Shown here piece by piece: positions 2,239-20,368 of a stretch of 25,578 bases of DNA. The DNA lies in the IMG/VR virus record IMGVR_UViG_3300040758_000113. One strand, written 5' to 3'. A program made the translations under genes and the position numbers. This DNA comes from a virus. The notes beneath the pieces were generated by a model. That model was not told where the DNA came from and searched no databases. It saw only the letters and a program-made list of their open reading frames with translations. The first letter of the stretch is position 1. Every line of letters begins with the position of its first letter.

Positions 2239-2946
2239 ATGAAAAGAGTTGGAGATTTGACAAACAGGAGGTTGGGGCATTTAGTTGCATTAAGAAGAGA
2301 TGAATTTATACCCCGAAAGTGGGTATGCAAATGTGATTGCGGCAAAGAATGCTGCGTTGAGGGAAGAAAGCTAAACTCCGGGGTCAGGAGTAGCTGTGGT
2401 TGTAGGGGGTTTGAAAACATTGTCGGTAAACGATTCGGATACCTTACCGTCCTTGGATTAAAGGAGATACACAATCAAAAAACTTTCTTTGAATGTCTTT
2501 GTGATTGTGGAAAAATAACCGTTGTCGGTAGATGCAAGTTGTTGGACAGTCACACAAGGAGTTGCGGGTGCTTGTACACGCAAACCCGAGAGAGCGAGCG
2601 TAAAGCCTTTGGTGCATCCGCTGCCAGAAAAACTGTAAGACAGTATGAACGTAACGCCGTGGCGAGAAACCTTGTTTTTGGTCTTACTAATGAGGAAGCG
2701 ATTGATATCCTTAAAAAAGACTGTTGGTACTGTGGGTCTCCACCACAGCGGGAAGTGCGGCTCGCAACGGGATACGGATACTTTATGTGCAATGGAATCG
2801 ACCGCTTAAACAACGACCTCGGATATTTAAAAGATAATATCGTTCCCGCTTGTAAGAAATGTAATGAGAGGAAGAAAGCGGATTCCGTTGATGAGTTTCT
2901 GCATTGGGTGGAGCGCATAGCGAAATACAGATTGGGGTTAAAATAA
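2239..2946 (+). CDS. HNH-type (His-Me finger) homing-endonuclease-like protein with two N-terminal W-x-C-x-C-D-C-G…S-C-G-C zinc-binding repeats; Asp-Arg at the canonical Asp-His position
   Basis: C-terminus is CWYCG…GYGY…NGIDRLNNDLGYLKDNIVPACKKCNERK, i.e. a C-x-x-C … C-x-x-C-N-x-x-K zinc site framing a ββα-metal core. Two N-terminal repeats: WVCKCDCGKE…SSCGCRG and FFECLCDCGK…SCGCLY. AGGAGG ribosome-binding site. Gene is visibly AT-richer than the flanks. Confidence 0.8.
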   Translation: MKRVGDLTNRRLGHLVALRRDEFIPRKWVCKCDCGKECCVEGRKLNSGVRSSCGCRGFENIVGKRFGYLTVLGLKEIHNQKTFFECLCDCGKITVVGRCKLLDSHTRSCGCLYTQTRESERKAFGASAARKTVRQYERNAVARNLVFGLTNEEAIDILKKDCWYCGSPPQREVRLATGYGYFMCNGIDRLNNDLGYLKDNIVPACKKCNERKKADSVDEFLHWVERIAKYRLGLK

Positions 2947-3425
2947 TGAATATCCTATACTATCCCACAGAGATTTTACTCCAAAGGTCTGAGACGGTTA
3001 CGGAATTTGGCGAATTTTTAGTAAAACTGTGCAATGAAATGATAGAAATAATGTTATCTTACAACGGTTTGGGTTTAGCTGCTCCCCAAGTGGGTGTTAG
3101 TCGAAGAGTCTTTATCATGAAACTTGCGGACGGTAAAAAAATAATTGCTGTCAACCCAAAAATTACGCCTAAAGGTGAGTATAAGATTATTGAGGAGGGT
3201 TGCTTGTCCTTCCCAAATTTTTACGGACCTGTTTCTCGACGGGATGAATGTACAATTATCTATCAAGAGCCAATGAGCGGGAAAGAAACGACTTTGGAAC
3301 TCACGGGTTTAGACGCTCATTGCGCTCAACACGAAGAGGACCACATCAACGGAATTCTTTTTATTCAGAGGATGCCGAAGCATTATCGCAAAAAGCTTTT
3401 GAAGGAATGGAGCAAAAAGCATTAA
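2946..3425 (+). CDS. def: peptide deformylase
   Basis: All three PDF motifs are present: GLGLAAPQVG (G-Φ-G-Φ-AA-x-Q), EEGCLSFP (EGCLS) and AQHEEDHINGILF (HExxH metal site). The start ATG overlaps the upstream TAA by 1 nt (TAATG), which suggests translational coupling to the HNH gene. AT-rich like its upstream neighbour. Confidence 0.9.
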   Translation: MNILYYPTEILLQRSETVTEFGEFLVKLCNEMIEIMLSYNGLGLAAPQVGVSRRVFIMKLADGKKIIAVNPKITPKGEYKIIEEGCLSFPNFYGPVSRRDECTIIYQEPMSGKETTLELTGLDAHCAQHEEDHINGILFIQRMPKHYRKKLLKEWSKKH

Positions 3426-3429
3426 GTTG

Positions 3430-3449
3430 CCCGGCCCCTGCCGGTTTGT
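3430..3449 (+). terminator. Candidate intrinsic terminator: stem CCGGC/GCCGG, loop CCCT, then TTTGT
   Basis: The hairpin 3431-3444 lies directly after the def stop and is followed by a short T-tract at 3445-3449. The stem is only 5 bp, so this is weak. Confidence 0.3.
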
Positions 3450-3496
3450 AGGACTCGCATCGCCACGGGTCTGACGTTACGGTGGGGAAACAGGGA

Positions 3497-3562
3497 CGGC
3501 TCTTTTAGGAAAGCCAGAAGCCTCATAACCTTCCGGCATCCGTTCGACTCGGATGGAGCCGC
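3497..3562 (+). tRNA. tRNA-like element with anticodon CAU (Met/Ile2-type) and a non-canonical shortened D-arm; possibly a degenerate or pseudo-tRNA
   Basis: Hand fold. Acceptor stem CGGCTCT (3497-3503) pairs with GGAGCCG (3555-3561), 7 bp including one G·U. Anticodon arm GAAGC-CTCATAA-CCTTC (3517-3533) has U33, anticodon CAT and A37. Variable loop CGGC. T-arm ATCCG-TTCGACT-CGGAT (3538-3554) is perfect and its loop matches TΨCRANY. Discriminator C3562. Only 10 nt sit where a 15-17 nt D-arm is expected (total 66 nt), so tRNAscan might score it as a pseudogene or miss it. Confidence 0.35.
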
Positions 3563-3795
3563 CGACCATGGGCGCAGAGTTTTCGGCGGGTAGCTCAGTT
3601 GGAGTTCTTAGACTGGAGGGCGATAGGCCATCGTTGCCAGTCTGAGACTTATTCGAGGCCGGGGAGGCTAGTGACCATAGCCTTTTCGGAATCGGGTAGA
3701 GAGCACCCTCATTCACATGAGGGCGGAGTGAGATTTCCAATCTCCGTATCAAAGGGCTGGTAACCCTAAGCCCGCCCAAATTTCAAGGAGGCTGT

Positions 3796-4083
3796 ATGGC
3801 ATCGAAGCGTAATCCCCATCTATCAAGGTTGAGCACCGAGGAGTTGGAAGCCGAACTTGAAGCTCGGGAAGCGGAGGGAAATGCGCCTCCCCCGCTGCTT
3901 GAGAAACCCGACTGGAACAATCTGAAAGCTTTCGTGGTGAGCCAGATTGAGGAAATCTCCAAGCCAGACGGCTATGCCAAGGACTTCGAGCACTATGTGT
4001 TCGAGCAAGTCATGAGTACCCTTTATGGCAAGGGATTTTGGGCTTGGTACAATGAAGGACCCTGCGAGCGTGCCGGTGGTTAA
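3796..4083 (+). CDS. hypothetical protein (95 aa)
   Basis: Strong ribosome-binding site AAGGAGG 6 nt before the ATG. Coding-like ORF that follows the long structured spacer. Confidence 0.6.
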   Translation: MASKRNPHLSRLSTEELEAELEAREAEGNAPPPLLEKPDWNNLKAFVVSQIEEISKPDGYAKDFEHYVFEQVMSTLYGKGFWAWYNEGPCERAGG

Positions 4084-4091
4084 GGACAACC

Positions 4092-4514
4092 ATGACCCCG
4101 TTTGGAAAGGTGTTCCAAATCCGTTGGAAGGAGGCACTCGGCAGACCCGAGTGCCCCTACCTTTATCGGTGGACGCTTATCATCTTCGGGTTCTCCATCC
4201 GGCTCCATCACTGGCTCCGGTCAGATGACCGGCGTTTTTTCCACGACCATGCCAGCAATTTCGTATCTATTATTCTCAAAGGTCATTACAAGAATGTGAC
4301 CCCGGATGGGACCTTCGAGGTTAAGGCCGGGTCTATCTGGAAATCGGACGCCTTGCGCCGTCACTACTTGGACATTCCCAAAGGCGGGGCTTGGACTTTG
4401 CTCTTCTGTGGTCGGCCCTACCATAAGTGGGGATTCTACGTGAAGGGGCACAAGTGGCGTCCTTTACGCTATTTCAGCAAGTTTGGAATCATTCAAGACG
4501 AGAATTACCAGTAG
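4092..4514 (+). CDS. conserved phage-type hypothetical protein with HHW…D…HDH motif (140 aa)
   Basis: AAGGA ribosome-binding site 5 nt upstream. Contains RLHHWLRSDDRRFFHDHASNFVSIILKGHY, a His-cluster pattern I recall in small phage proteins of unknown function. No family is assigned with certainty. Confidence 0.6.
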   Translation: MTPFGKVFQIRWKEALGRPECPYLYRWTLIIFGFSIRLHHWLRSDDRRFFHDHASNFVSIILKGHYKNVTPDGTFEVKAGSIWKSDALRRHYLDIPKGGAWTLLFCGRPYHKWGFYVKGHKWRPLRYFSKFGIIQDENYQ

Positions 4515-5108: not shown

Positions 5109-6197
5109 ATGGAACTCGAAAAGACATCGCACAGTGAACAGTACATGGATTACTCCGGGGGTAAGGAAAATGCCCCCACGCTGACCGTTATGGTCGGCCC
5201 GGCTGGCTCAGGAAAGTCCACCCATGCCCGCAGTCTTGTCAACTGGGCAGCGGGAGCGACCGTCCGGGTAAACCGGGACACCATCCGTGCCATGCTCTAC
5301 TGTGATTCCCCGTGGAACCACTCGAAGGAAGATGTGGTCCGCAAGTATGAGGAAGAGGGCATCCGTATGTTCCTCGCCATGGGACTCAACGTCATCGTGG
5401 ATGACACCAACTGCGTGTCCCGCACCCGGCAAAAGCTGGAAGAGATTGCCCGTGGCGCTCGGGTAAAGTTCTGCCTGCATGTCATGAACGTGGACAAGGA
5501 AGAGTGTAAGCGGCGGAACGCCCTACGCACCGGCAAAGAATGCGTGCCCGAGGAAGCCATCGACCAACAGTTCAAGCGGCTGCGGGAAACAACCGTCCGC
5601 CCGGCTGGCTACGGTCTGGATGAAACCAACCGGGCGGTAGACGACTGGAACGAGCTTAACGCCGTCATCGCCGGGGGCAGGGACTTTCACGAGCGCCTGC
5701 CGGGCGCACCGTGGGTGTTCTGCGACGTGGACGGCAGCCTTGCCGAGAACGAGGGCGAGCGGAACCAGTTCGACGAGACGAAGGTCCTGCTGGACTCCTG
5801 CCGGGAGGGCGTGGCGAAGTGGGTCCGGGGACTGTACAGCACCCACAATATCGGAATTCTCAGTGGAAGACACGACTCCTGCTCGACAGACACTTGTTCT
5901 TGGCTGAGTTGTTATCGGGTGCCATTCGACCTCCTCTTGATGCGCCCGGCTACCAACTTTGACCACGATTATATCGTCAAGCGACGGATTATGGAGACGA
6001 TACTCCGGGTCATTCCGAAGGAACGAATAGCTTTTTTGATTGATGACAGATGGCAAGTAATCCGTATGTGGAAGGACATGGGGTTCAAGGTTTACCCTGT
6101 GGGCGGAACCACGGACCACTCTGCTACTTGCCAGTTCAAGCCGGAAAAGAAAGGTTGGAGGCATTGCCCCCGATGCGGAGCCTACGAAGATTTTTGA
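5109..6197 (+). CDS. pseT: polynucleotide 5'-kinase / 3'-phosphatase (T4 Pnk-like, bifunctional)
   Basis: N-terminal kinase domain: Walker A VGPAGSGKST, then VNRDTIR and IVDDTN. C-terminal HAD phosphatase domain: FCDVDGSL (DxDGT motif) and FLIDDRWQVIRMWKDMGF. Both domains are collinear with T4 Pnk (GCPGSGKST … DVDGTL … IDDRTQVVEMW). Confidence 0.9.
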   Translation: MELEKTSHSEQYMDYSGGKENAPTLTVMVGPAGSGKSTHARSLVNWAAGATVRVNRDTIRAMLYCDSPWNHSKEDVVRKYEEEGIRMFLAMGLNVIVDDTNCVSRTRQKLEEIARGARVKFCLHVMNVDKEECKRRNALRTGKECVPEEAIDQQFKRLRETTVRPAGYGLDETNRAVDDWNELNAVIAGGRDFHERLPGAPWVFCDVDGSLAENEGERNQFDETKVLLDSCREGVAKWVRGLYSTHNIGILSGRHDSCSTDTCSWLSCYRVPFDLLLMRPATNFDHDYIVKRRIMETILRVIPKERIAFLIDDRWQVIRMWKDMGFKVYPVGGTTDHSATCQFKPEKKGWRHCPRCGAYEDF

Positions 6198-7028: not shown

Positions 7029-7684
7029 GCATCTGTGGCAAGCCAATGCCGAAAGCGAGGAATGGAGCCGACCGGGGAATCTGCACTAGACCACATAATC
7101 ATGGTCCCAAAGGTGGTTGTCACGGCAACGGCACTTGTTTCGGATGCGGTATTAAACTGACATCTTTAACATCTAGTTTTTCTGTTGCTAACCGTGGACA
7201 AGGAGAGTGTAAAGTTTGTAAAAAAGAACGGTGCAGGAAGGACCGTGGTAGCCAACCACTTAATGTCCAGAATCCCGGAGAATTTCACGCTTTTCCGTGT
7301 GGGTGCAGTGGAGTTCTCCCTGTAGAAGGTTCAAACAAGTTTTCTATGGCAGGAACTCATCGAGGGAAAAGACAATATGTTTGTCGTGTGTCTTTCATTA
7401 TCAAGGGTTCTAATGACAGAGCAAAAAAGGGGAGATACCAACCCATTTTTCAAGATACCCCTCATACGGTAATTCGTAAATTGATGGAGGAGCCTAACTG
7501 CGAATGTTGTGGAGAAACACTGTCATGGAAAGTGTTAGCACGTGGAAAAACTCCCCACCTTCATCATGACCATAAAACAGGCGAAATCTATGGATTCGCC
7601 CACCCAAAATGTAACCCTTTAGCAATGGAGAAAGAAATAGAACGACTGAAAGCCTTGCTTAAAGCACAAGAGATGGATTTATGA
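7025..7684 (+). CDS. HNH homing endonuclease (canonical HH-DH) with Cys-rich N-terminus
   Basis: CECCGETLSWKV…HLHHDHKTGEIYGFAHPKCN is the classic HNH motif. The start is taken at ATG 7025 (ATGA overlap with the 6255 stop, AGAGGG ribosome-binding site) rather than the track start 6977. The stop overlaps the rnl start (ATGA). Confidence 0.8.
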   Translation: MSICGKPMPKARNGADRGICTRPHNHGPKGGCHGNGTCFGCGIKLTSLTSSFSVANRGQGECKVCKKERCRKDRGSQPLNVQNPGEFHAFPCGCSGVLPVEGSNKFSMAGTHRGKRQYVCRVSFIIKGSNDRAKKGRYQPIFQDTPHTVIRKLMEEPNCECCGETLSWKVLARGKTPHLHHDHKTGEIYGFAHPKCNPLAMEKEIERLKALLKAQEMDL

Positions 7685-8934
7685 AGCTTGAAAATCTGCT
7701 AAACATTGACGAACTGAACAAGCAAATCAGGGAGGGTTTTATCAATGAGCGCCGTCACCCCGCACTGCCCCTGCGAATCCTGAATTACTCGAATCGTTGT
7801 ACTTTCGAGAATCACTGGTCTCTTGAAGCTTGTATCTGCCGTGGTCTGATTGTGGATGACGCCGGGGTGATTGTATCCAGACCCCCATCAAAATTTTTCA
7901 ACCTCAACCAAAGAGGACCCCACATTTTCCGCAACAATCAGGGGGAGTTGGAAGTTCAAGACGAGACGTTCACCCCAGAGTTCCTCCTCGGGCAGGCGAA
8001 GATGTGGAGGTCTCCTATAACCATCACCCGCAAGCTGGATGGGTGGGCGGGAATCTCGTGGCACTACGAGGGCATCTACGGGGTCGCCAGCCGGGGTTCC
8101 TTTGACTCGCCGGGGGCGCAGTATGCCACGGAGAAGGTGCAGAAGTTCGTCAAGTATAGGGCGTTCGCTGATTTCCTTCCCGAGGATACCACTCTGTTCT
8201 TTGAGATTATCTCCAAGATTACCAAGGTGGTTGTCCCCTACAACTTCGAGGGGCTGGTGCTTATTGCTGCCATTGCCAACGAGACCGGGGAGGAATTGGA
8301 ATACCCCGAGCTTGAGGCTTTCCACAAGCAGCTAAACAGCTATGCCAAGGACCGGGACTGGTGCCGGTTGGTGCCGAAGTTCGACATGTCGGTGGAAGAG
8401 TGCATGGCGGACAAGGACATGACGGAGGAGGGCTATGTTGCTGCCGTCTACCGGCCTCACTTCCCGCCTGTCCGGGCGAAGGTGAAGCTCGCCGAGTACT
8501 GTAGAATCCACAGGATTGTCACGGGAGTCACACCCCAGAAAATCTGGCAAGAAATGCACAATCCCATGTCTCCCTGGCTTGACCATAACAGCAAGCTGAA
8601 CCATAATACAGGTGAAGTCCTCTACGATTTGTCTGTTCCAAGGGACTTTGCCAAATGGGTCAAAGGTTGGCAGATGGGATTGTACAAGGCGTTCCACGAT
8701 AAGCTTTTGCAAGCCCTGAAAGCACAGAAGGCTTACAACGAGTTAGAGCGTGGCATCTACCCTGAGCACCGAAACAGGCTGCACTACTTGCATGGGTGTT
8801 TTCCCGTTGATATTGTCAATGCTGCCATCAAGCTAGAGAACGGCAACATTGTTGGAGCCTATGAGATTTTATGGAAGATGGTTCGTCCCTATGGTCGGGA
8901 GGAAACATACTATTTCGATGGCAAGGGAGAATGA
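7681..8934 (+). CDS. rnlA: RNA ligase, Rnl1 family (T4 RnlA-like)
   Basis: Collinear with T4 Rnl1: LEACICRGLIV matches T4 ALECRGIMF, RPPSKFFNLNQ matches RPMEKFFNLNE, and the nucleotidyltransferase motif I is ITRKLDGWAGIS (K-x-D-G lysine adenylation site), matching T4 LTKEDGSLVS. Confidence 0.88.
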   Translation: MKLENLLNIDELNKQIREGFINERRHPALPLRILNYSNRCTFENHWSLEACICRGLIVDDAGVIVSRPPSKFFNLNQRGPHIFRNNQGELEVQDETFTPEFLLGQAKMWRSPITITRKLDGWAGISWHYEGIYGVASRGSFDSPGAQYATEKVQKFVKYRAFADFLPEDTTLFFEIISKITKVVVPYNFEGLVLIAAIANETGEELEYPELEAFHKQLNSYAKDRDWCRLVPKFDMSVEECMADKDMTEEGYVAAVYRPHFPPVRAKVKLAEYCRIHRIVTGVTPQKIWQEMHNPMSPWLDHNSKLNHNTGEVLYDLSVPRDFAKWVKGWQMGLYKAFHDKLLQALKAQKAYNELERGIYPEHRNRLHYLHGCFPVDIVNAAIKLENGNIVGAYEILWKMVRPYGREETYYFDGKGE

Positions 8935-19669: not shown

Positions 19670-20368
19670 TTAGGTGCTTGAATAAAGGAGACATTTTCTA
19701 CGATGTCCCCCATAGGAAGAACGAGTCACTCCCGTAAATATCCGGCTACAATGGTCACAGGTAAAGTTATATGTTTTGGTAGCTAAGGTATGAGACATCT
19801 TGTTCCTTTGTTTTTCACCCCACCTATGCCCAAAGTTAGGATTGTTTTCTCCTTTAATGGTTTGGCTTAGGCTTATAGCTTGTCGTTTGTGGGCTTCTGG
19901 GGAGAGGGAATCCTTGCCCTTTTTTGCTTTAGATATATTTTGTCTATGCTCATAAGTTTTAGGTATACCCCTTAGACGCAAAGATTGTGCTAATTTTTCT
20001 TTTTCCGTGTATGGACGGTGTTTTTTACTTTTCATCTTAGCTATTGTTTCGGGGGTGTGGTGCCAACCTCGCCTTACATTCCCGGTTCCTTTTTCGCTCA
20101 AATTGTAGTTGAACATCCATGTCGCCTGAATCCAATAGGTTTCTCGTTCCCTCATCCCTTGTTCTGGACATGGTTCGATTACCTCAAAAGAAAAGGCTTG
20201 TTCTCCATGCTTATTCCAAGAGTTTTGTAATTTTTGGTTTCCATGTGTATTATGTCTCAGTTGTTTAAGGTGAGTTCTCCATCGACAGGGGATGTTTTTA
20301 GAACTTCCAATGTAAAACACCCCCGTGACAGTATTAACTATACGATAGATTCCACAACGAGTTGTCAT
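19670..20368 (-). CDS. GIY-YIG homing endonuclease with NUMOD3-like repeats and C-terminal Cys/His cluster
   Basis: GIYRIVNTVTGVFYIGSS…R…H…ETYWIQ is the GIY-YIG core. Downstream basic repeats (SPEAHKRQAISLS…ENNPNFGHRWGEK). AT-rich. Minus strand, divergent from the + strand 20371 gene. Confidence 0.85.
   Translation of the reverse strand: MTTRCGIYRIVNTVTGVFYIGSSKNIPCRWRTHLKQLRHNTHGNQKLQNSWNKHGEQAFSFEVIEPCPEQGMRERETYWIQATWMFNYNLSEKGTGNVRRGWHHTPETIAKMKSKKHRPYTEKEKLAQSLRLRGIPKTYEHRQNISKAKKGKDSLSPEAHKRQAISLSQTIKGENNPNFGHRWGEKQRNKMSHTLATKTYNFTCDHCSRIFTGVTRSSYGGHRRKCLLYSST

Follow-up and report, generated by a model that had tools for sequence, protein, structure and literature searches.

We found that a non-coding interval in a densely packed jumbo-phage genome is related to tRNA genes. 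The DNA analyzed is IMG/VR record IMGVR_UViG_3300040758_000113, a stretch of 25,578 nucleotides that we refer to as the window. The interval lies on the + strand at positions 3426-3795 and separates def, which encodes peptide deformylase (2904-3425; Pfam Pep_deformylase, E 1e-42), from an open reading frame (ORF) of 95 aa that begins at 3796. It contains a closed first domain with a tRNA-like element (TLS1), followed by a second element (TLS2) that is joined to part of a third (TLS3). Judged by comparison with related loci, the folds are real and tRNA-derived. On balance, we favor the view that the interval descends from a phage tRNA cluster, has been remodelled and is maintained by selection as RNA structure, and that its elements would be tRNA-shaped processing or mimic modules, not ordinary decoders. 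A first-pass annotation of this DNA had proposed that the gap is tRNA-related and that 3497-3562 is a near-complete tRNA-like fold with CAU as anticodon. That central idea was right, and the overall interpretation is partly supported.

A structured non-coding interval follows def

The interval is GC-rich and structured, as the first-pass annotation had claimed. Its G+C content is 0.57, compared with 0.39-0.44 immediately upstream. The + strand folds better than shuffled sequences (z -3.87; 0/100 shuffles were equally good), whereas the - strand shows no excess over shuffles (z -1.72). The part from 3580 to 3785 on its own has a + strand fold z of -5.3. Both the fold z-scores and the G.U pairs favor the + strand.

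The interval is also non-coding. A minus-strand ORF at 3477-3779 (100 aa), already suspected to be spurious, is not conserved; relatives that are 96% identical have indels of 1 nt and 85 nt within it. Small + strand ORFs in the gap are likewise broken by indels in relatives. Because indels disrupt them, we rejected both kinds of ORF as genes. Inside the gap we found no site that resembles a promoter or a terminator. A GC hairpin with TTTGT does exist after def, yet the terminator scan omits it, and we rejected its reading as a conserved terminator: the bases belong to the conserved helices P0 and HP0 described below, and the stretch is def coding sequence in one relative (L016).

Standard detectors gave little. 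ARAGORN with bacterial defaults found 0 tRNA or tmRNA genes in the window, Rfam gave 0 matches at gathering thresholds in the window and no family in the relatives (only noise in permissive mode), and blastn found no match to the gap among GenBank phages. The detector check that had been recommended thus came back without a default or gathering match; mitochondrial mode alone labeled elements of the 3497-3562 type, as mtRNA-Met(cat). When ARAGORN was run with introns or relaxed thresholds, it placed "introns" at inconsistent positions, and we discarded these as artefacts. A perfect T-arm followed directly by a 7/7 acceptor stem occurs once in the window, at 3497-3562, and the same pattern arises in 19% of dinucleotide-shuffled windows. 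The tRNA-like pattern in a single sequence is therefore not significant, and what supports the folds is their conservation and covariation among relatives.

Related loci in other jumbo phages

Related contigs and loci that were compared carry L-numbers (L001, L005, etc.). Scans with exact and degenerate DNA patterns against IMG/VR, JGI metagenomes and GTDB genomes yielded no more than two contigs, both jumbo contigs from IMG/VR (317 kb and 238 kb) with identical RNA regions. A looser pattern produced chance matches in coding DNA, e.g., in a methylase motif. A pattern match in a conserved non-coding stretch shared by L020 (2046-2078) and L059 (a Lactobacillus nasalidis contig) is unrelated to the finding. 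Four further variants were obtained from contigs encoding homologues of the flanking proteins.

The order def, RNA region, small ORFs, cupin, Pnk, Rnl1 is shared by the window type (L012), L001/L013 (with L011 as a variant), L005, L016-L018 and L083-L092. Between deep lineages, DNA identity is 54-68% for def, 61-70% for Pnk and 74-83% for the cupin gene. The TLS1 core (73-82%) and TLS2 (68-78%) are thus comparable to the highly conserved cupin gene. The RNAs are not present in the distant relatives L007 and L008, found by their 95-aa-ORF homologues, or beside the def homologues of L019, L081 and L082.

The def genes of the window and L001 share only 63% DNA identity, whereas the adjoining RNA region and cupin gene are 96% identical. 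This difference suggests that the window is a recombination mosaic with respect to L001/L013, with a putative breakpoint in or just after def.

The spacer between TLS1 and TLS2 varies. It contains no ORF in the window or L005, a 64-aa ORF in L001, a 32-aa hydrophobic ORF in L016, and three small ORFs in L083. Phage tRNA clusters have a similar mix of tRNA-type genes and small ORFs. In L001 the 64-aa ORF ends within GGGTAGCTC. In L011 a U-to-C change at position 40, which is the TLS2 U8, removes this stop and lengthens the ORF by 10 codons. The 64-aa ORF of L001/L011 may not be a real gene.

TLS1 is a tRNA(CAU)-shaped module inside a larger fold

We found that 3428-3574 forms a closed fold in which the helix P0 encloses a long hairpin (HP0) and TLS1. 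The 5' strand of P0 (UGCCC, 3428-3432) pairs with its 3' strand (GGGCG, 3570-3574), and 100% of cells in the alignment of five sequences are paired. Changes in P0 are one-sided (U.G to U-A, and G-C to G.U). HP0 (3436-3487), as predicted by RNAfold, is irregular, with an outer helix of 8 bp, a middle helix of 3 bp and an inner helix of 7 bp. Across lineages, 88-95% of its cells are paired and three pairs are altered on both sides. In L016, the 5' part of HP0 overlaps the end of def.

TLS1 with its leader and trailer extension spans 3493-3566, and the tRNA-like module itself is at 3497-3562. Like a canonical tRNA, it has a 7-bp acceptor stem (3497-3503/3555-3561, CGGCUCU/GGAGCCG, including one G.U) adjoining a 5-bp T-stem with a TΨC-type loop of 7 nt (T-arm 3538-3554, AUCCG-UUCGACU-CGGAU). 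Both stems covary. The anticodon-like arm (3517-3533) has the loop CUCAUAA, with CAU at 3524-3526, U33 and a purine at position 37, and is followed by a variable loop of 4 nt (3534-3537). The acceptor stem, T-arm, loop and variable loop agree with the first-pass description of this fold, which requires two corrections. The anticodon stem has four pairs and a C.C mismatch next to the loop, and there is a miniature D-stem. This mini D-arm (3506-3516) lies in a D region of 13 nt and has a 3-position stem (U-A, A.C, G-C) with a 5-nt loop, GAAAG. TLS1 does not have the D-arm of a canonical tRNA, a 3-4-bp stem and a loop with G18 G19, and neither ARAGORN in default mode nor the Rfam tRNA family (RF00005) detected it in the window.

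Several features of TLS1 vary between lineages. Its discriminator base is either C or U, L083 has C at position 33, and L016 has U at position 37. The CAU triplet and the T-loop UUCGACU are invariant. Four bases of the leader pair with the trailer in four of the five lineages, extending the acceptor to an 11-bp helix.

The first domain is conserved as structure. In the five-sequence alignment of P0, HP0 and TLS1, 92% of cells are paired and 8 of 43 pairs are changed on both sides, compared with 0-2 in slid controls. This covariation spans three deep lineages. Every helix of TLS1 contains a compensatory change: U-A to C-G in the acceptor and mini D-stem, and A-U to G-C in the anticodon stem and T-stem.

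Homologues of TLS1 come closer to what detectors recognize as a tRNA. ARAGORN with default settings called the L083 homologue tRNA-Met(cat), and it called the L016 homologue the same at 90% stringency. The best Rfam tRNA-clan score, for the L083 homologue, was 18 bits, and blastn found no similarity between TLS1 and any E. coli tRNA. A covariance model built from TLS1 (R1) detected one copy per related locus, with 92-104 bits on the + strand (92.6 bits for the window) versus 23-25 bits on the - strand. When the model was run on 63 other cupin loci, the top match was a genuine tRNA-Gly in L144; there was one weaker match, in L167. These results show that TLS1 is a tRNA(CAU)-shaped module with a miniature D-arm and an acceptor stem extended by leader-trailer pairing, inside a larger closed fold.

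TLS2 is derived from tRNA-Val and carries a D-loop insertion

The segment GGGTAGCTCAGTTGG at 3588-3602 had been singled out as resembling the start of a tRNA around which no cloverleaf could be closed. Both observations held. The segment is the start of TLS2 and is a tRNA 5' end, and the cloverleaf does not close because an insertion of ~95 nt splits the D-arm and because the T-arm and 3' acceptor strand have been deleted.

The window contains the 5' two-thirds of TLS2 (3584-3723). The 5' end (3584-3605) comprises the acceptor strand CGGCGGG (3584-3590), U8 and A9, the D-stem strand GCUC (3593-3596) and the D-loop AGUUGG with G18 G19. No lineage departs from this sequence, and in L093/L107 and in L111 an uninterrupted tRNA begins with the same acceptor. 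The insertion, with its two hairpins, lies between G19 and the other D-stem strand, GAGC (3701-3704). This strand is also invariant, ~105 nt downstream of GCUC; a local GAGU alternative is present in three lineages.

The first hairpin of the insertion (HP1, 3606-3647; apical loop AGGCC) is kept despite divergence, with six pairs in helices 3-4 changed on both sides. The second (HP2, 3649-3699) has 94.8% of cells paired and three pairs changed on both sides. The GAGC strand is followed by A26 and by HP3, the equivalent of the anticodon arm (CCCUC-AUUCACAU-GAGGG; the three together at 3701-3723). HP3 has an 8-nt loop, or alternatively 7 bp and a tetraloop, and contains two compensatory pairs. 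Of the hairpins reported earlier, HP1, HP3 (3706-3723) and one at 3730-3744 (the anticodon-like arm of TLS3) are genuine features; HP2, a fourth large hairpin, had been overlooked.

The apical loop of HP1 (window 3625-3629) always contains the self-complementary GGCC, as AGGCC, GGGCC, GGCC or GAAGGCCAA, and the hairpin loop of an unrelated-looking insertion in L095 is also AGGCC. The GGCC loops of HP1 and HP2 could form a kissing pair in L083 and L016 and could not do so in L001 and L005.

Full-length TLS2 is present in L001, L005, L016 and L083. In these, the acceptor stem is CGGCGGG/CCCGCUG followed by A73 and CCA, the variable loop is AGGUC (5 nt), and the T-arm loop is UUCGAGU or UUCGAUU. 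In the six-sequence alignment of TLS2, 95% of cells are paired and 13 of 58 pairs are changed on both sides, versus 2-5 in slid controls. The double changes are located in HP1, HP2, HP3 and the T-stem. Conservation and covariation in related phages, which the first-pass annotation had proposed to look for, are thus seen in both the first domain and TLS2.

ARAGORN accepts the body of TLS2 only without the insertion. When the insertion was deleted in silico, default ARAGORN called a tRNA in L001, L005, L016 and L083, with an anticodon loop of 6 or 8 nt and a reported "anticodon" of 2 or 4 bases. In comparisons with E. coli, the core without its insertion matches tRNA-Val best, at 83-84% identity over 58 nt, and does so in all 5426 genomes. 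The anticodon loop is A-U-[UUAC]-A-U in three lineages, AUUCACAU in the window and AGUCACAU in L005. It has 8 nt (with UCAC or UUAC), one base too many, in every lineage. A35, C36 and A73 are identity elements for valyl-tRNA synthetase; TLS2 keeps A35 and C36, and the relatives have A73. TLS2 does not have the continuous D-arm and 7-nt anticodon loop of a tRNA-Val, and the window copy is not a complete cloverleaf, since its T-arm, 3' acceptor strand and discriminator are deleted. At the level of sequence comparison, these results trace TLS2 back to a tRNA-Val gene.

The window copy is a chimera of TLS2 and TLS3

Alignment of the window with L001 and L005 showed that 85 nt are absent from the window, with the junction at 3723/3724. 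The deleted stretch runs from just past HP3 through the variable loop, T-arm, 3' acceptor strand and CCA to the 5' half of TLS3, and is flanked by two CAUGNGG repeats. What follows the junction (3724-3777) is the 3' half of TLS3, fused to TLS2. Intact TLS3 in L001 (5067-5168) has a four-arm fold (z -2.5). In the window, the TLS3 hairpin at 3730-3744 (GAGA-UUUCCAA-UCUC) resembles a Gly-UCC anticodon arm, and 3753-3767 forms a 4-bp arm with a 7-nt loop.

The chimeric RNA (3585-3776) still folds closed (z -5.3), because GGCGGGU (3585-3591) pairs with GCCCGCC (3770-3776). Position 3773 is C in the window and U in L001, so that a G.U pair becomes G-C. We conclude that the window copy is a deletion chimera of the 5' part of TLS2 and the 3' part of TLS3. 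The RNA region ends at a Shine-Dalgarno sequence (AAGGAGG, 3786-3792) and the ATG (3796) of the 95-aa ORF (together 3786-3798).

tRNA-Val-type genes precede the cupin gene in many jumbo phages

A + strand gene at 4092-4514 encodes a cupin-fold protein of 140 aa. Its homologues number at least 671, with 59-91% identity for the best 120, and it belongs to no Pfam family. Its confidently predicted model (pLDDT 88) gives only generic matches to small metal-binding cupins, and the structure prediction gave no link to RNA.

We found that at least 15 of 76 other cupin loci in IMG/VR have a tRNA-Val (tac/aac) or an xAC tRNA with an odd loop within ~200 nt upstream of the cupin gene. Most of these tRNAs end less than 100 nt from the cupin start, and those with abnormal loops were reported as ta, taac, ac, ca or aaac. 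L104 has the order tRNA-Met(cat), tRNA-Val(tac), cupin, the canonical counterpart of TLS1, TLS2 and cupin in the window. In L104, L112, L115, L095 and L083, the 3' end of the tRNA or TLS2 is 1-7 nt before the next start codon. Often, only 1-4 nt and no Shine-Dalgarno sequence separate the upstream tRNA from the cupin ATG (L104, L112, L115, L164, L165, L152, L118 and others). Because of this spacing, we suggest that 3' processing of the tRNA might leave a leaderless cupin mRNA.

Other loci have remodelled the TLS2-type tRNA differently. Variants with the TLS2 acceptor in L095 and L103 contain insertions of ~88 and ~150 nt, respectively, in the anticodon loop, immediately 5' of xAC-AU. In L102 both loops, the anticodon loop included, have small insertions, and in L101 a 7-bp acceptor hairpin with ACCA is all that remains. 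These variants indicate that remodelling spares the acceptor stem and 3' end and affects the other parts of the tRNA.

L095 encodes, in a row, a weak vWA_Ro60-like protein (2987-3880), the TLS2-like RNA with the ~88-nt insertion (3891-4045) and, after the cupin gene, a tmRNA (5302-5648) with the tag AAPVKMAA. CUA-anticodon tRNAs, which ARAGORN labels tRNA-Pyl and which are of the amber-suppressor type, lie beside the cupin gene in L112, L115/L116, L136, L152, L157 and L162; the TAG stop may be reassigned in these phages. On the 213-kb phage contig L093, a 94-nt tRNA-Lys(UUU) at 2215-2308 has a long extra arm, which is unusual for tRNA-Lys, and lies near a gene for an HGTP_anticodon-domain protein.

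Genes for Pnk (5109-6197) and an Rnl1-type RNA ligase (7681-8934) lie further downstream in the + strand array of the window. A connection between these tRNA-repair enzymes and the interval had been suggested. It amounts to synteny only, which is kept in L005, L013, L016 and L083. The window also encodes an SNF2 helicase and a GIY-YIG endonuclease. A GIY-YIG/NUMOD3 homing-endonuclease-like gene (19670-20368) is on the - strand, opposing the otherwise + strand array.

Comparison with known RNAs

The interval resembles phage tRNA clusters in having tRNA-derived genes among small ORFs of a large phage, near Pnk and Rnl1 (PMC10264068; PMC11555353). Relatives have ordinary tRNA-Met and tRNA-Val genes at the equivalent place, and anticodon loops deviate in both. 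In contrast to such clusters, neither element of the window is called by default ARAGORN or Rfam. TLS1 is without a normal D-arm, and TLS2 has the ~95-nt D-loop expansion and 8-nt anticodon loop and is truncated here.

TLS1 is also similar to the D-arm-reduced tRNAs of animal mitochondria, such as tRNA-Ser(AGY) (PMC9427863, PMC4013460), in that the acceptor stem, anticodon arm and T-arm are all present in full and a short element takes the place of the D-arm, and ARAGORN accepts it in mitochondrial mode. However, TLS1 is in a bacterial virus, not an organelle, and sits inside a larger fold with a paired leader and trailer. We know of no adapted translation factors.

Bacterial Y RNAs (YrlA, and Yrn1 of D. 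radiodurans) are, like the elements described here, non-coding RNAs that mimic tRNA. They can be substrates of RNase P and the CCA-adding enzyme and occur in phages too, and Yrn1 has a 6-nt "anticodon" loop and an incomplete D-arm (PMC4201824). However, the RNA ends of YrlA emerge at the position of the anticodon, whereas those of the window elements are at the acceptor stem. Y RNAs typically have a Ro-binding stem and a Ro60/TROVE gene as neighbor. No Ro60/TROVE domain was found among the 30 window ORFs scanned, there was no Rfam match, and a weak vWA_Ro60-like neighbor is present only in the distant relative L095.

tRNAs can punctuate polycistronic transcripts, and bacterial RNase P accepts minihelix substrates; a 7-bp hairpin with ACCA, as L101 retains, is a minimal RNase P substrate. 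In the loci described here, tRNA-shaped modules are likewise directly between ORFs, and in relatives the tRNA 3' end is 1-7 nt from an AUG. In contrast, the RNA region of the window is followed by a normal Shine-Dalgarno sequence, and processing here is a proposal. Bacteriophage T4 has stable RNAs, species 1 and 2 (rnaC and rnaD), in its tRNA cluster; they are small and of unknown function, and T4 has Pnk and Rnl1. The likeness, small RNAs among phage tRNA genes in a genome with Pnk and Rnl1, is one of general description.

Other RNA classes were rejected, as was a riboswitch. No tmRNA, a class marked by tRNA-like ends and a reading frame for a tag, was found in the window or close relatives by ARAGORN or Rfam (RF00023); these tools can detect tmRNA, since they found the true one in the distant relative L095. 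No group I intron was matched in Rfam, even in permissive mode. Group I introns are ~200 nt or more, contain the group I core and are usually in the anticodon loop; the tRNA insertions seen here are 88-150 nt, and that of the window clade is in the D-loop. By the features tested, the elements descend from phage tRNA genes, are most like tRNA-like processing modules or tRNA mimics, and are outside canonical tRNA, tmRNA, Y RNA and group I introns.

Discussion

We favor a model in which the modules are co-transcribed with def and the downstream genes, as would be expected from the common strand and from the lack of a promoter- or terminator-like site in the gap. The tRNA-like shapes would be recognized by tRNA-processing enzymes, with RNase P acting on the 5' side, and with 3' processing and maintenance of CCA. 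The polycistronic transcript would therefore be cut into separate mRNAs, and stable tRNA-mimic RNAs would be released. The released RNAs could have further roles, e.g., in being charged or in occupying host factors that bind tRNA. The tRNA 3' ends that abut start codons in relatives support punctuation of this kind.

Several observations weigh against this model. The covariation comes from three to four independent lineages, and the shuffle control is uncorrected for their relatedness. The chimera in the window is without a TΨC-type T-arm and CCA and may be inert here; its abundance in metagenomes shows that phages can do without full-length TLS2. In L019, whose def is 58% identical, the next gene directly follows def, with no RNA in the 74 nt available. 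The extended helix of paired leader and trailer is a non-ideal substrate for RNase P. In addition, the conserved CAU of TLS1 and the xAC and A73 of TLS2 hint at recognition by a synthetase or the ribosome, which pure processing does not need.

TLS1 could instead be a working reduced-D-arm tRNA(CAU), either elongator Met, Ile2 or initiator-like, that is charged and takes part in translation, in which case its place after def would reflect a translation-start module. The invariant CAU, the window loop CUCAUAA, the canonical T-loop, the 7-bp acceptor and the 4-nt variable loop all fit, as do compensatory changes in four arms, the mini D-stem included. ARAGORN labels the L083 copy tRNA-Met, and R1 also detects a true tRNA-Gly. 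However, three conserved loop bases over three deep lineages are not statistically meaningful, and the D-arm is reduced to a 5-nt loop on a stem of three positions, the middle one being A.C. U33 is replaced by C in L083, position 37 is U in L016, and the anticodon stem contains a mismatch, either C.C or A.C. Where the Met, fMet and Ile2 tRNAs of E. coli have A73, TLS1 has C or U. The leader-trailer pairing is conserved, P0 encloses the whole module, and the scores against known tRNAs are poor (18 bits in the Rfam tRNA clan; no blastn similarity in E. coli). The statement that all known bacterial tRNAs have a canonical cloverleaf (PMC11551756) also counts against it. We consider a working tRNA unlikely. 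More generally, ordinary decoding does not fit either element because of the loop sizes, mini D-arm, variable discriminator, leader-trailer pairing and tolerance of indels. The RNAs might instead be decoys or resistant substitutes, occupying or titrating host anticodon nucleases and other proteins of tRNA-targeting defences, or partners of Pnk and Rnl1. Pnk and Rnl1 are syntenic in every lineage with enough sequence, full-length TLS2 keeps an intact tRNA body with CCA, and tRNA-Val-like genes of many jumbo phages have abnormal anticodon loops (6 or 8 nt, G33, U37), which fits the published idea that phage tRNAs evade nucleases through anticodon-loop changes (PMC10264068, PMC11555353). This support is circumstantial: no defence or anti-defence gene was identified adjoining the region, the tRNA body of TLS2 is lost in the window phage, and the expansions of the D-loop and anticodon loop are left unexplained. 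We regard a decoy role as rather unlikely.

It seems quite improbable that the elements are decaying tRNA pseudogenes with no present function, whose structure was inherited from ancestral tRNAs and inserted palindromic DNA. Truncation of TLS2 in the window, its reduction to an acceptor hairpin in L101, the C at U8 in L011, and insertions that vary in site and size between clades are what decay might produce, and a tRNA-like pattern in one sequence is not rare by chance. In contrast, double compensatory changes are present in every helix, including the inserted HP1 and HP2, and identity equals or exceeds that of neighboring protein genes. The acceptor stem, GAGC strand and T-loop are invariant across lineages, and the G.U pairs favor the + strand. 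Simple decay is disfavored because the folds have been kept, with compensatory changes, across lineages in which def is only 54-68% identical. The decaying cluster proposed by the first-pass annotation is disfavored by the same changes, and we found no support for its integration signal. Its remaining suggestions, a non-canonical functional tRNA, a processing signal or a new non-coding RNA, are not separated by sequence alone. It is very improbable, finally, that the 90-150-nt insertions in the D-loop (window clade) or anticodon loop (L095, L102, L103) are a new kind of intervening sequence, excised by a protein endonuclease and re-sealed by Pnk and Rnl1 to give a tRNA-Val with an unusual anticodon loop. 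If true, this would be enzymatic tRNA splicing in a bacterial virus.

Bacterial and phage tRNAs are regarded as uniformly canonical. If the interval is the maintained cluster that we favor, a clade of peat and soil jumbo phages keeps two non-canonical forms under structural selection, both missed by standard annotation: a tRNA(CAU)-like RNA with a mini D-arm, and a derivative of tRNA-Val that contains a large structured expansion and whose anticodon loop has 8 nt. In many jumbo phages, the very conserved cupin gene is preceded within a few nucleotides by a tRNA-Val-type gene, which often has an odd loop or large insertion, and this arrangement points to a tRNA-plus-gene module that can be reused. 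Processing of the RNAs would make the family a testable example of phage transcripts punctuated in the manner of tRNAs, and charging or binding of host factors would make it an example of tRNA mimicry. The family is a natural series for how far the tRNA body tolerates remodelling.

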